This document shows positions 27,001-33,000 of a DNA stretch of 43,830 nt, piece by piece. The first letter of the stretch is position 1. Each line of letters starts with the position of its first letter. The stretch lies in the IMG/VR virus record IMGVR_UViG_2839610755_000005. One strand, written 5' to 3'. The stretch is from a virus. Lineage: Duplodnaviria; Heunggongvirae; Uroviricota; Caudoviricetes. Position numbers: made by a program.

Positions 27001-30000
27001 GCGGCCCGGCAGGGAATGCTGTGGTGATGCACTAAAAGCACGGTGTTCGGGGGTTTTATGAGCAGCAAGCTTCATGGTCTTGTCTGGGAAGGGTGCGCCT
27101 TCACCGGCATGATCTTATCCAGGGTGGCGGTTATGGCCCGTCTTGCAGACTACAGCAATGACGAGGGCGTGTCATGGCCTGCCATTGAAACTATCCGGCG
27201 TCAGATCGGTGCAAGAAGTGAATCCACAGTGAAATCGGCTATTGCAGAACTGGCGAAAGAGGGCTGGCTGACGAAGGAAGAGCGTAAGGTCGGTGGGCGT
27301 AACGTAAGCAATATCTATCGGCTTAATGTGGAAAAACTTGAAGCAGCTGCAGCGGCGGCGCGTGAGGCATATAAACCAAAAAGAAAAATTAGCCAGGCAA
27401 AAAATGACCCGTCAAATATTGCCCCCTCAACGGTTGGCCCGTCAAATGTTGATGGATCAACTGTTGATAAAAAACTGCGGATTAGGGGGGCGATGATTGA
27501 CCCCGATCCGTCAGTATTAAAACCTGATCCGTCAGATAAAAGATCTTCTTGTCCGGACGTTTCACTGCCGGACGAAAAACAATCATCACCAGTTGAGCGA
27601 TTTCTGGAGAAACACCCGGATGCGCATACCTGGAATGTACCGAAGCGACAGTGGGGAACCCGGGAGGATTTGACGTGTGCACAGTGGATCTGGGGACGGG
27701 TTGTTGCGTTGTATGAACAGGCCGCCAGTGATGATGGGGAGGTATCACGCCCCAGAGAGCCTAACTGGACGACCTGGGCGAATGATGTGCGCATGATGCG
27801 TATGCTGGATGGACGTAGTCACCGACAGATTTGTGAAATGTTTGGGCGTGTTCAACGGGATTCGTTCTGGGTAAAAAACATCATGAGTCCGGCAAAACTC
27901 CGGGAAAAATGGGATGAGCTGGTTATTCGCCTGGGGCGTTCGCCCGCGCAGCGTTGCGTGAATCATATTTCTGAACCGGATACCGAAATTCCGCCGGGGT
28001 TCAGGGGGTAGCGCATCATGAAAAACATTACGTCAGGTGGTGTTCTGGCAAGAATCAGCAGATTTGTGCCGCAGGATGCAATCCCTCCGTACCGTACGGT
28101 GGCGGAGTGGCGGGAATGGCAGCTTGCTGAAGGGCGTAAGCGAAGCGAGGAGGTTAATCGTCTGAATCATCAGACGCGGGTTGAAAAAATCATTAACCGC
28201 TCCGGTATCCAGCCGCTTCACCGGAAGTGTACGTTCTGTAACTACCGGGTGCAGAACGCTGGTCAGCGCCATGCCCTGAGTCAGGCGAAATCCATTGCGG
28301 CAGAGCTGGAAGGCGGCTGTACGAATTTTGTGTTCAGTGGCCGGCCTGGCACAGGAAAAAACCACCTGGCGGCGGCGATAGGCAATCGGCTGATGGAGAA
28401 GGGGCGCAGCGTAATTATCATCACTGTGTCTGATGTCATGAGTGTGTTGCACGACAGTTACGACAACGGCAAATCAGGTGAAAAATTTTTACAGGAGCTT
28501 TGCGGGGTGGATTTGCTGGTCCTGGATGAAATTGGCATGCAGCGGGATACGCGTAATGAGCAGGTCACGCTTAATCAGATTGTTGACCGCAGAACGGCAT
28601 CGTTACTCAGTGTGGGGATGCTGACAAATCTTAATCATGCAGCGATGAATACACTTCTCGGCGAGCGGGTGATGGACCGCATGTCCATGAACGGAGGTCG
28701 CTGGGTGACGTTTAACTGGGAGAGCTGGCGTCCGAACGTCAGCCAGCACAGGAACTGAGAAGTAATTTTTATCCGGAGGAAATTTTAATGGAAACCGTAT
28801 TGCATGCACTGAAAGCGATGGGTAAAGCCAATTCTGTTGAACTGGCGGCGCGGCTTGATATCAGCCGTGAAGAAGTTCTCAACGAACTGTGGGAACTCAA
28901 AAAAAATAGCGTTGTTGATAAAACGGGTCACACCTGGTTTCTGGCTGGCGAAGGTGAATCCGGGGTAACCGAAGAGCGGCCAGTAAAATCTGAAGCACAG
29001 GATATGCTGACCAGGGAGGTCGAACAAAAAGTTACCGCAGACATGATGATTGAGTTTATCGGTCAGGATGGGGCTAAAACGTGTGAGGAACTGGCGGGTA
29101 AGTTCGGTGTCAGTACTCGCAAGGTTGCTTCCGCGCTGGCGGTGGTAACCGCAACGGGGCGGCTGGCACGCGTTAATCAGAACGGTAAATTTCGTTACTG
29201 CATGCCGGGCGATAATTTACCAGCAGAGCCGAAAGCCGCGCTGGTAACGGAAAGTGATGGTAAGGCCTTTCCTCAGCCAGCAGGTGCTGCGTTACCAGTC
29301 CGGGAAGCCGCAACACAGGAAGAAAATAAAACAGAAACTGTGGCGGTCACAGTGCAGTCACAGCCGTTGTTCACCAGAAAACATCCGGATGGTCTGATTT
29401 TACCATCGCTGCATGTGGCTAACCGCGAGCTGCGCCGGGCAAAAGGTCAGGTTCAGAAGTGGGAGCGTGTCTGCGCCGCGCTGCGGGAGCTGAACAAGCA
29501 CCGGGATATTGTTCGGCAGATTGTCGATTCATCCGGTCGTATTGTGTCGGAAAAGTGATTGCCGGAGGCGCTTATGGCGAAACCTTTTACACACGAACAG
29601 CGTGAAGAACTGAAGGCCCGAATTATCGGGCTGGTACGCAAAAATGAACGCATGACGATATCACAACTGGAGAGAGCGACGGGAGCAGGCTGGCATTCAG
29701 TCAGACGTTGCCTTGTGGATGTACTGGCTTGCGGCGATTTATACATGCCCGGTAAATACGGTGTTTTTACATCAGAACAGGTGTATCGCGTATGGCGTAA
29801 GGCAGCGGAGAAAACAACCGACCAGACATTGATTCGAAAGTTACCAGACGGAGAAATACGCCGCTACGACAGACAACAGAACATAATCTGTGGCGAGTGC
29901 CGGAAGAGTGAAGTTATGCTGCGTGTACTGGCGTTCTATCAGGGCAATTTTCAGGAGGCGGTATTGTGAGTGAATTAGCTATCAGGCTTCAATTGTCGCT

Positions 30001-33000
30001 GGCATTCACATCAAAGGAGAAGAGCATGGAAATAAAACCAGAAGATGAGTTAAGCAATATCGTTTTATTTCCGGTAAAAGAGGATGACCCACGTAATCAG
30101 GTTAATTTTCTTTATGAGCCATCGGAAAGAGCATATTGTCATCACGCCTCTGTTCGGGTTGACGAAAAAGAGCGTCAGGTCCGCTGTAAAATCTGCGGTG
30201 CAGTTGTGGAGCCATTTGACTGGATGCTCTCTGTGGCGAAAAGAGAAACCAGACTGGCAGATGATGTAAGGATCTTGCGCCAGGAGGAACGGGAAAGGCG
30301 GAGAAATATAGAAAAGCTAATTCAGATTGAGCGTAACGTGAAAGCGCGGATACGCAGGGTGACAAAATCCAGAACTGAATAATTAAATTTAGCTCTGTTA
30401 AAAATTTAATCCTTAACCGGAGGTATATCAATGTCAAACGCACAGAAAGTTATTAACGCTGAAAAATATAACGAGTGGGTGAAAAAGTTCTCAGAGCAGA
30501 TTTTTAAAATTACTGGCGACGAGAATGCGGCAAAAAATGAATTAGAGCCGTGGACACCTGAAGGTGTCGACCCAAATTATTGCTGGTGGGATGTTGATCC
30601 AGTTGATGCTGCAAATGAAGCTATGAGTTATCACAACGATTAATGTCAGGAGGCCGCCCGAAAGGGCGGTAATGAAAAGTGACTGAATTAACCAAAGAGA
30701 AATTAATCGAAGAAGCCAAATTAAAAATAGCGATTGCGAAATGCTACCCCAATTCAGGGATGGCACGGGTAGAGGGCGAGTTATTCAAAATTGCACTGGC
30801 ATCGCTGGAAGCAGAACCGATAGCGTGGGAATGCGGTGAAAACATAATCCTGTTTAACCCTGACACAGTTGAAGCATACGCAAAACGTGCGGAAATATCA
30901 CCTAAACCACTATTCTCCGCGCCGCCAGCGCTGGTAGTGCCTGATAAGTTGCCGCGTGAATACAGAAACGGTTGGCCTCTTGCGTATAGTGATTATGCTG
31001 AAGGCTGGAACGACTGCCGCGAAGCCATGCTTCAGGGAGATAAATCATGATTAATCGTATCAAGCTGGAGCACATCCTCGAATATGCTAGGCAGCAGAGG
31101 CATATTGGTCAGCATTGTAAAATTCCACCAGGAGATATGGTTGAAATCATGGAGATTGCTATGCGCAAGGCTGGCAATTCTCCGGTAACTCCGGATGGTT
31201 GGATAAGCTGTAGTGAGCGAATGCCGAATACCAAAACAGCCGTTCTTGTTGCCGTGGAGTTTGACAGGAAAGGTGACTGGCGAATGAAATGGGCTACTTA
31301 CATCCCGGGGCATCCTGACGCTAATGATGGGTGGATAATTCCTGGTGCGTCGTGGAAACCGTCACACTGGATGCCGCTACCAGAACCGCCGCAGGAGGTG
31401 CGCCAATGATCTGGCCTGAAGCCTTTGCAATTACAGGCGTTGCTATAGCTATTGATTTTTTAGTATATGTTATTTGTCGGTGGGGGTAAAAACGTTCGCC
31501 GGGATTCACACCAAAGGAGGGAATATGTCGGATGATATTTCACTGGCAATGGAAGGTGCGCTGGCTGTTATTGCTGTTGTGGGCGTTTACTGCCTGGTTG
31601 TGTTTTTGATGGATCGACTAGGGAACTGAATTCATTACGATATGGGAATTCCCATATCGGGTAAAAACGGTTTGCGGTAAAGCGAGAGTTAAGTAGAATT
31701 GCTGCGGGTGCTTGAGGCTATCTGCCTCGGGCATGAACACCAACGGCAGATAGAGAAAAGCCCCAGTTAACATTACGCGTCCGGCAAGACGCTTAACATT
31801 AATCTGAGGCCATATCTATGCTCTACACACGTAGGTTAGCCTCTTACGTGCCGAAAGGCAAGGAGAAGCAGGCTATGAAGCAGCAAAAGGCGATGCTAAT
31901 CGCCCTGATCGTCATCTGTTTAACCGTCATAGTGACGGCACTGGTAACGAGGAAAGACCTCTGCGAGGTACGAATCCGAACCGGCCAGACGGAGGTCGCT
32001 GTCTTCACAGCTTACGAACCTGAGGAGTAAGAGACCTGGCGGGGGAGAAATCCCTCGCCACCTCTGATGTGTCAGGCATCCTCAACGCACCCCACTTAAC
32101 TCGCTTCGGCGGTTTTTTGTTGTTTATTTTCGGTGAGCGTGATGCATCTGGTTGTACCGATGTGGCTGGCTGATTCTGTTATTCAGGTGGTTTATTGCTG
32201 TTGATTGGCATGTCTTCACGGCTAGAATCGAGGCTCTTAAGTAGCGCGCAGGGATAAGAGGGATGGCCCCCATAAGAGGGATGGCCCCCATAAGGGGAGG
32301 TGTTTATAGTTCATGGGATTTTTGTTATGAACGATAAGGAATTAATTGCTGCGCTTTCTATACCAGGTAATTATGAAGTAATAGTTCTTGGGAATGGTGA
32401 GTTTATCGTAATGCCATTGCCATCTGATGTTATTCTGATCAGCAAAGAATCGCATGCGGATTCGGTCAGTTACTTCAGCATTAAAAGAGACTAGATTATA
32501 ATGCTGTAGTAAAGCCAGCCTGAACAACTGGCGTCTGTCGCACCATTACGAGGATAGTAGTGGTGCATTACAAGAAACTTAACAATTCTGATAATTCAGC
32601 CGTCTTTGCCAGCAGGCACGGGCGGTGTTCTCATGCATTCAAATCTGACTGGTTCCAGCATGACCCATGCACTGAAGAACAGGCCGAATGGCTGATTCAG
32701 TGCTACCGCAGGCGTGGTTACGAGTTTCAGAAAGATCTCAGCTTCGATCGTCGTCACTGGATAATCTCCGCCAGGCTCCCTTATTCCGAACGCCCACCGC
32801 GTCCGTCCCGCACATTCCAGCAGCGCATCTGGAGGTAACGTGCGGGTATTACTTCGACCTGTTCTGGTACCGGAACTCGGTCTGGTTATCGTTAAGCCAG
32901 GCCGTGAATCAATGTCAGTATTCCATAACGGCAGAATATTGGTGGAGCCGGAACCGAAAAACATGCGCGGTCTGCCGTCCGGAGTCGTTCCTGCCGTTCG

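Follow-up and report, generated by a model that had tools for sequence, protein, structure and literature searches.

What do the small genes behind the replication genes of a lambdoid prophage do, and do they act together? This question is raised by a Caudoviricetes record, IMG/VR IMGVR_UViG_2839610755_000005, whose entire 43,830-nucleotide (nt) stretch was analysed and is called the window here. Six closely packed open reading frames (ORFs) follow the replication genes at 28788-31409. A sequence-only reading had treated them as one block at a lambdoid hotspot for anti-host, anti-defence or superinfection-exclusion genes, and as the most likely place in the window for an undescribed function. 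Our analysis shows that the stretch is the ren/nin-equivalent accessory part of the rightward early operon in a Rac-like lambdoid prophage of Escherichia coli O157:H7. Its first two genes are a linked module directly behind the helicase-loader gene, and the remaining four are cassettes that move between early operons. We are highly confident in this identity, anatomy and mosaic structure. That the pair counteracts abortive infection is a tentative proposal, and the explanation as a whole, mosaic anatomy together with such a pair, seems to us evenly balanced between right and wrong. The six ORFs, with their most likely starts and their lengths in amino acids (aa), are as follows.

28788-29558, + strand: ORF1, 256 aa, DUF1627, phrog_630
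29574-29969, + strand: ORF2, 131 aa, DUF977, phrog_142 ('Ren-like exclusion protein')
30026-30382, + strand: ORF3, 118 aa, phrog_1621
30431-30643, + strand: ORF4, 70 aa, phrog_4659
30679-31050, + strand: ORF5, 123 aa, GTG start, phrog_5117 ('Eaa protein' in UniRef)
31047-31409, + strand: ORF6, 120 aa, DUF551, phrog_924, phrog_24004 and phrog_60

The two genes of the module keep their place across many phages. Among 80 viral contigs with close DUF1627 relatives, the sample for all viral locus counts given here, DUF977 begins 786 nt after the DUF1627 start, directly downstream, in 69. The gene immediately upstream of DUF1627 is a helicase loader in all 80, lambda-P-like in 46 and DnaC/IstB-like in 34. 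The position of DUF1627 after the replication genes is kept in these loci and in 13 genomic loci, and distant relatives (25-32% identity; Citrobacter, Enterobacter, Raoultella) lie in the same cro-YdaT-initiator-(loader) operon. Ren-like small winged-helix genes adjoin distant DUF1627 genes in two loci (L086 and L094). The operon position of the pair is also the map position of lambda ren. In the window the two replication genes ahead of the pair are the following.

27043-28011, + strand: O-like helix-turn-helix (HTH) initiator, Pfam HTH_36
28018-28758, + strand: DnaC/IstB-like loader, Pfam IstB_IS21

ORF1 is a member of the DUF1627 family, matching PF07789 at 9.6e-88 (292.3 bits; gathering cut-off 28.1) and phrog_630 at 4.6e-132 over its full length. 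An AlphaFold2 model built from 40 homologues (mean predicted local distance difference test score, pLDDT, of 78) contains three structured parts.

28788-28952, + strand: winged helix 1 of ORF1, aa 1-55
29037-29207, + strand: winged helix 2 of ORF1, aa 84-140
29409-29552, + strand: C-terminal helices of ORF1, aa 208-255

Both domains are modelled as H-H-H-beta-beta winged helices at pLDDT >93, and their comparison with hhalign (probability 94.7%, E 5.6e-8) indicates that they are homologous to each other. A disordered linker of ~30 residues separates them, and a disordered acidic/Pro-rich linker follows the second; the C-terminal helical segment may oligomerise. This architecture of winged helix, linker, winged helix, linker and C-terminal helix is common to the family in a 40-sequence alignment. 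DUF1627 comprises 166 clusters at 50% identity among 1.84e9 proteins and, among species genomes, occurs in Enterobacteriaceae only, apart from two metagenome-assembled genomes. Foldseek searches with the ORF1 model returned tandem winged-helix matches to ScpB, ESCRT-II, the SelB C-terminus and UFL1/DDRGK1 (E about 1e-3) and single-domain matches to Z-alpha, MarR and FeoC; against PDB and BFVD the matches were to generic winged-helix proteins only. The modelled likeness to ScpB, ESCRT-II and the SelB C-terminal domains lies in the two consecutive winged helices (aa 1-140), whereas there is no sequence relationship to these proteins and the ORF1 domains are split by a disordered linker and followed by the C-terminal helical segment. 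Thus the tandem winged-helix repeats seen by the sequence-only reading were borne out by the model, the hhalign comparison and the Foldseek matches. PDB sequence searches with ORF1, ORF2, ORF3 and ORF6 gave nothing significant.

A named relative of ORF1 is YdaW of the E. coli K-12 Rac prophage. Over aa 1-154, which include both winged helices, ORF1 is 58% identical to the DUF1627 remnant of Rac. The Rac gene order is ydaS-ydaT-ydaU-ydaV-DUF1627 remnant, with the remnant at the ydaW position; an assignment of YdaW to DUF977 was rejected on this annotation. ORF1 and YdaW share the DUF1627/phrog_630 family and a place behind a DnaC-like ydaV homologue. They differ in that YdaW is truncated and lacks the second linker and the C-terminal helices, whereas ORF1 is full length, and in that no DUF977 gene follows ydaW in Rac.

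ORF2 is a relative of lambda Ren. It matches Pfam DUF977 (PF06163) over the whole profile (1-134 of 134) at 3.6e-72 and 241.1 bits, with a cut-off of 22.1, and ORF2 and lambda Ren match phrog_142 at 2e-43 and 1.6e-41, respectively. BLASTP aligns ORF2 with Ren at 2e-6, and hhalign aligns the DUF977 allele alignment with Ren over 87 columns (95.4%, E 1.7e-8); winged helix 2 of ORF1 aligns with Ren and DUF977 at 71-77%. ORF2 consists of a single winged helix and a conserved C-terminal motif, LPDGEIRRY..NIICxECRxSEVMxRVLAFY, common to lambda Ren, in which the shared residues are ECRxS..M.RVLA.Y. Variation among DUF977 alleles falls in the winged-helix middle, and both ends are conserved. Both genes lie in a delayed-early PR operon just after the replication genes. 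However, ORF2 is 35 aa longer than Ren, with an inserted basic segment, and ORF1 stands between ORF2 and the loader gene, whereas lambda has no DUF1627 and its ren lies immediately after P.

In some loci DUF1627 has other neighbours. Small proteins of 69-85 aa with a CPxCG motif, likely zinc ribbons, adjoin distant DUF1627 in L091 (5660-5869, Citrobacter), L092 (5599-5856, unclassified bacterium), L094 (4778-5017, Raoultella) and L096 (1242-1472, a metagenome-assembled genome). A PHROG scan of the L091 and L094 proteins gave no match. They may be a recurrent third partner of DUF1627 that is absent from the window. In the Escherichia ruysiae locus L085, DUF1627 is followed by a 689-aa ORF (6004-8073) with a P-loop-like motif, GRRGTGKS, in place of DUF977, which looks like a defence-type insertion at the DUF977 spot.

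The four genes that follow the pair have a different history. ORF3 matches phrog_1621 at 8.2e-54, a family confined to Enterobacterales with 119 matches. Behind a disordered N-terminus it has a predicted C-x-H...C-x2-C zinc ribbon (nt 30137-30196) and a charged helix of ~55 residues (nt 30212-30376). The ligands C38, H40, C54 and C57 (C58, H60, C74 and C77 when numbered on the 138-aa frame) do not vary among 25 homologues with identities as low as 46%, and the helix is likewise invariant in the family. In the AlphaFold2 model (mean pLDDT 72.7; helix 85-94) the Cys/His cluster, already noticed from the sequence, forms a small beta ribbon. The match to Pfam Zn_Ribbon_TF (TFIIB-type, PF08271) is weak (0.0019, 18.2 bits, under the cut-off of 29), and Foldseek of the model against PDB gave nothing below E 0.5, the best match being the TFIIB ribbon 1pft at E 0.55. 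Some records label phrog_1621 'LygF', which we take to be a locus name from a Salmonella Enteritidis-specific region; a literature search on the name gave nothing functional.

ORF4 (phrog_4659, 3.7e-50) is acidic (isoelectric point 4.4, net charge about -8) and contains four Trp; its 120 homologues, each at least 70% identical, are found in Escherichia and Shigella only. The basic ORF3 and the acidic ORF4 were considered as an obligate pair, and this was rejected, since ORF4 lies beside 7 of 37 ORF3 genes and twice occurs without ORF3. ORF5 matches phrog_5117 at 2.6e-50 as well as phrog_660 and phrog_60. Many of its 552 homologues are 205-215 aa fusions in which a linker leads to a C-terminal DUF551 domain (PF04448); ORF5 of the window is the N-terminal module, ending at a stop codon without DUF551. 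It was rejected as an Ea22 homologue, having no Pfam match at E up to 1 (PF13935 included) and a BLASTP E of 5.1 against lambda Ea22, and its tie to Ead/Ea22 is module exchange only. ORF6 has an N-module of its own (aa 1-43, phrog_24004), a linker NSPVTPDGWISCSERMP (aa 44-60) and DUF551 (aa 51-116, nt 31197-31394), which matches PF04448 at 6.3e-22 and 78.7 bits (cut-off 22; profile 1-68 of 68). The fused ORF5-DUF551 relatives share the linker NSPVTPDGWISCSERMP, and the N-module of ORF6 is different. To judge from these sequences, the ORF5/ORF6 arrangement is a module swap and not a frameshift.

These genes are scattered. ORF3 occurs in 37 of the 80 viral loci, ORF4 in 9, ORF5 in 9 and ORF6 in 13, with low pairwise co-occurrence, and all six ORFs are together in two. 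In a set of 5426 complete E. coli genomes, 4041 have part of the block and 84 have 80% or more of it; none of the deposited phage genomes covers more than about 30%. The scattered occurrence indicates that the block is a mosaic of independent cassettes and not one co-inherited unit, as it had been treated from the sequence.

Relatives of the cassettes are found in Shiga toxin (Stx) phages. Homologues of ORF3-ORF4 are gp17-gp16 of the Stx2a phage ArgO145 (92% DNA identity), flanked there, in the leftward early operon, by an ead/Ea22-like gene on each side. The segment from the 3' part of ORF5 through ORF6 is 99.3% identical to a stretch of the Stx2a_WGPS6 exo-xis region that has an ead/Ea22-like gene on one side and an antirepressor on the other and is downstream of bet-exo-orf60a-orf63. 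Natural fusion proteins (Ea22-ORF3 and ORF5-DUF551) also exist. The window thus shares with the exo-xis/Ea22 regions of Stx2a phages genes that, at 92-99% DNA identity, stand beside ead/Ea22-like genes there, whereas in the window these cassettes lie in the rightward operon behind the replication genes. One junction is marked by a hairpin.

30653-30670, + strand: GC-rich hairpin with a GAAA (GNRA) loop and no U-tract after it, between ORF4 and ORF5

The hairpin folds with a centroid energy of -15.5 kcal/mol (z -3.1). Its exact 23-mer occurs in eight viral loci, where it either follows ORF4 in the absence of ORF5 or precedes ORF5 in the absence of ORF4, and phage matches to ORF3-ORF4 stop at it, at window position 30677. 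Its recurrence points to either a conserved recombination junction or an element of RNA stability. Collectively, these comparisons show that the ORF3-ORF6 cassettes move between leftward and rightward early operons, with recombination at the GNRA hairpin and the NSPVTPDGWISCSERMP linker. An AGGAGG lies just upstream of the hairpin, and a four-codon mini-ORF downstream of it (ATG 30672 to TGA 30686) overlaps the GTG start of ORF5.

Genes of the exo-xis region influence lysogenisation and induction, and this pool is tied to the lysis-lysogeny decision and not to defence (PMC3824215, PMC7093339), which speaks against extending the anti-defence idea to ORF3-ORF6. The DUF551 domain of ORF6 is shared with Ea22 variant V2 and with YfdS of CPS-53, and Ea22 favours lysogeny (PMC10834534, PMC4776307). 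Judging only from the literature on Ea22 and YfdS, ORF3-ORF6 are probably small proteins of adaptor type with a modulating effect on early development or on host physiology.

Are the six genes real, and are they new? All six frames are intact, and the longest-ORF frames were confirmed on the + strand at 28788-29558 (256 aa), 29559-29969 (136 aa), 29966-30382 (138 aa), 30431-30643 (70 aa), 30679-31050 (123 aa) and 31047-31409 (120 aa). ORF2 most likely starts at ATG 29574 (131 aa) and not at TTG 29559, because a GGAGG lies upstream, PGAP places the start there and MAK(V/P)FT opens every homologue. The most likely start of ORF3 is ATG 30026 (118 aa) and not GTG 29966, because the former is the PGAP start, has a good Shine-Dalgarno sequence and is where the family alignment opens. 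The genes had been called mostly translationally coupled; with the likely starts this applies to ORF5/ORF6, the sole overlap in the block (ATGA), and the other junctions are gaps of 15, 56, 48 and 35 nt, each with a Shine-Dalgarno-like sequence. Ratios of non-synonymous to synonymous polymorphism (pN/pS) against alleles in related loci were 0.37 for ORF1, 0.15 for ORF2, 0.25 for ORF3 and 0.18 for ORF4, showing that these four genes are under purifying selection. Together with the 552 homologues of ORF5 and the DUF551 match of ORF6 above the Pfam threshold, this shows that the six genes are real. None is new. Three of the ORFs match Pfam DUFs and all six match PHROGs; PGAP labels the six genes in O157:H7 as DUF1627, DUF977, three hypotheticals and DUF551, and the exact sequence of each protein is present on about 1000 contigs in public collections. 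The genes are therefore already catalogued phage genes and not undescribed ones. Their families are of unknown function, in keeping with the earlier statement that no confident functional assignment could be made, and none of the six is a structural or defined replication protein.

Positions 26000-33500 are 100% identical to many E. coli O157:H7 chromosomes. The first ~20 kb of the window hold the end of an NleA-carrying prophage, insertion sequence (IS) elements and type III secretion system effector genes. They are followed by a second lambdoid prophage, inserted at ompW, whose genes run in the order int, xis, an 814-aa exonuclease, dicB, DicF, a cI-like repressor, a cro-like gene, YdaT, the O-like initiator, the DnaC/IstB-like loader, the six ORFs, sok/hokD, a DUF968 pseudogene, RusA, Q, a methylase, and lysis and head genes. 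With the replication genes on one side and Q on the other, the block thus occupies the ren/nin site of the rightward early operon, and the hotspot position assigned to it from the sequence was correct. It shares this position with the lambda nin region (ninB to ninI), which is likewise a dispensable, mosaic and tightly packed set of delayed-early genes, whereas no gene of the block is homologous to a nin gene and the recombination-type analogues, RusA and DUF968, lie downstream. On the + strand of the block we found no intrinsic terminator and no convincing promoter. An Rfam 15 scan of 28600-31700 (E up to 1) found no family inside the block and only sok, downstream of it. A lead to Pas small RNAs (sRNAs), for which DUF1627 is listed as a conserved neighbour of PasA/PasC, was rejected, as those sRNAs lie near lysis/Q and no Rfam RNA lies in the block. 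The antisense ORFs of the block have no credible family support. One of them, antisense to ORF6 (31032-31313, - strand), matches phrog_23547 at 1.9e-27 over positions 1-49 only; this PHROG was probably built from mis-called antisense ORFs.

The prophage itself is probably defective. The DUF968 gene (32840-33889, + strand) is split by an internal stop into ORFs of 168 and 175 aa and is a PGAP pseudogene, and the matching genome record has a frameshift in the portal gene, which lies further downstream.

What might the pair do in an active phage? ORF1 and ORF2 would be made together with the replication proteins after repressor loss, their winged helices would bind DNA or a protein partner, and the two proteins would shield the replicating phage from abortive-infection (Abi) systems that sense phage replication. 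We favour this anti-Abi proposal, tentatively, because it would match two observations, the action of Ren against Rex and the recovery of ydaW in a screen against a retron toxin. Lambda ren reportedly lets the phage escape Rex exclusion, as Toothman and Herskowitz are said to have found in 1980. In an overexpression screen, K-12 ydaW is listed with the prophage genes that block RcaT, the toxin of retron-Sen2 (bioRxiv 10.1101/2020.06.22.160242). In this respect the anti-defence idea gained support from a relative of Ren and a relative of an RcaT blocker, and found none in PADLOC models: a PADLOC-DB v2 scan of the six proteins gave at best generic winged-helix matches to CARF/Csa3 C-terminal domains (E 2e-4 or weaker). 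Several points weigh against the proposal. The ydaW result is a single finding of an overexpression screen, made with a K-12 clone and not with ORF1, and thus concerns a truncated homologue at 58% identity; its effect could be indirect, and the text available to us does not name ydaW among the 11 re-validated RcaT blockers. ORF2 and Ren are just 29% identical. Winged helices are generic, and the fold matches of ORF1 span protein-binding (ScpB), RNA-binding (SelB) and DNA-binding (MarR) proteins. The pseudogenes of the prophage also mean that the six genes may be out of use in the O157:H7 strain.

The main alternative to this reading is a role in tuning replication, with ORF1 and ORF2 as accessory factors that modulate origin binding or helicase loading and have no anti-defence function. 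It would explain why the pair is always directly behind the loader gene, and one preprint calls lambda ren 'likely involved in DNA replication' and finds that Ren contacts the Rex proteins and O in two-hybrid assays (bioRxiv 10.1101/2021.04.19.439022). Winged helices are typical of initiators, and weak fold matches in BFVD include a 'replisome organizer' and a 'Replication initiator A'. However, the same pair lies behind two unrelated loader types, and the DUF977 allele class is independent of loader type, so the pair is not obviously matched to a replication partner, which weighs against the anti-Abi proposal as well. Lambda ren, like the nin genes a delayed-early and dispensable gene, is not needed for plaque formation (PMC10695390), and iterons or repeated sites were looked for in or beside the block and not found. 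We consider this alternative rather doubtful. Less probable again is that ORF1, ORF2 or both are ordinary sequence-specific transcription regulators of phage development, an unlikely reading for which many HTH family matches (MarR, ArsR, DeoR, GntR) on both ORF1 domains, the listing of YdaW as a predicted E. coli transcription factor of unknown function (PMC9308461) and the resemblance of the variable DUF977 middle to specificity determinants can be cited. All these HTH matches, including those of an NCBIfam scan, are under curated thresholds, a search for operator-like repeats nearby found none, and the best tandem winged-helix fold matches (ScpB, ESCRT-II, SelB) bind protein or RNA.

Two further readings concern the block as a whole. 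The internal stop in DUF968, the portal frameshift and the truncation of the ORF1 homologue in K-12 Rac would fit decaying cargo with no current function in the O157:H7 strain, which we think very unlikely given six intact frames, pN/pS values of 0.15-0.37 for ORF1-ORF4 and the exact proteins on ~1000 contigs each. That all six genes are one co-operating anti-defence, defence or superinfection-exclusion system seems hardly credible. They lie close together in a single operon, all on the same strand, and are arranged identically in 84 complete genomes; these genomes, however, may share the block by descent, since the full-length matches listed are largely O157:H7. The rarity of the full set among the viral loci, the low co-occurrence of ORF3-ORF6 and the presence of cassettes apart from one another in other operons of Stx phages speak against a single system, as do the lack of a PADLOC match and of an internal promoter for expression in the lysogen. 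Expression of this repressor-controlled early operon only after repressor loss, with no convincing promoter of its own, also argues against superinfection exclusion or defence by the resident prophage. Together, these results support the earlier interpretation in part: the position was right, and the block contains a homologue of Ren and a homologue of a retron blocker, but it is neither new nor a unitary system.

Other features of the prophage lie around the block. The O-like initiator gene contains two tandem copies of a 13-nt repeat, CCYGATCCGTCAG, spaced 21 nt apart (27502-27535, + strand), which could represent origin iterons. Between ORF6 and sok/hokD, a 34-aa hydrophobic ORF, MSDDISLAMEGALAVIAVVGVYCLVVFLMDRLGN (31525-31629, + strand), is a PGAP hypothetical without Pfam or PHROG match and could encode a small membrane peptide. 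Directly downstream of the block (31706-32030, + strand) come the RNA antitoxin sok (Rfam 111.7 bits) and the toxin gene hokD, the latter found in 46 of the 80 viral loci. The DicF sRNA (25224-25275, - strand; 76.7 bits) adjoins dicB, confirming a Qin/Rac-type immunity region. The sRNAs STnc100 (+ strand, 150 bits) and AgvB (- strand, 96.5 bits) lie back to back at 36807-37071, downstream of the methylase gene; a 2026 preprint relates STnc100 to PasD sRNAs. The 814-aa exonuclease (22139-24583, - strand) has an N-terminal RecE/Exonuc_VIII region (PF06630, aa 56-189) and, unlike classical RecE, a C-terminal Rv2179c-like 3'-5' exoribonuclease (DEDD) domain (PF16473, aa 633-804, 2e-67). RecE is a reported trigger of retron-Sen2 (bioRxiv 10.1101/2020.06.22.160242).

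As it stands, the finding matters little in itself, since it concerns catalogued hypothetical genes of a well-sequenced pathogen in a chance combination of shuffling cassettes. It does give a sharper map, in which the supposed block becomes one conserved two-gene module and four cassettes from the exo-xis pool, pieces of which are carried by Stx phages and by about three quarters of the complete E. coli genomes. YdaW of Rac turns out to be DUF1627 in truncated form, missing a second linker and a C-terminal helical segment that the intact protein possesses, and a sequence tie now joins DUF977 to lambda Ren. Two scattered hints, that Ren acts against Rex and that ydaW blocks a retron toxin, converge on members of one linked pair and yield a specific, testable idea. 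Its strongest form, that DUF1627 and DUF977 are a widespread dedicated anti-Abi module that masks or neutralises replication-sensing effectors (Rex-like, RcaT), is a little more doubtful than the replication-tuning role. If true, such a module would provide a mechanism for Ren after 45 years and would explain the link of the pair to unrelated replication genes.

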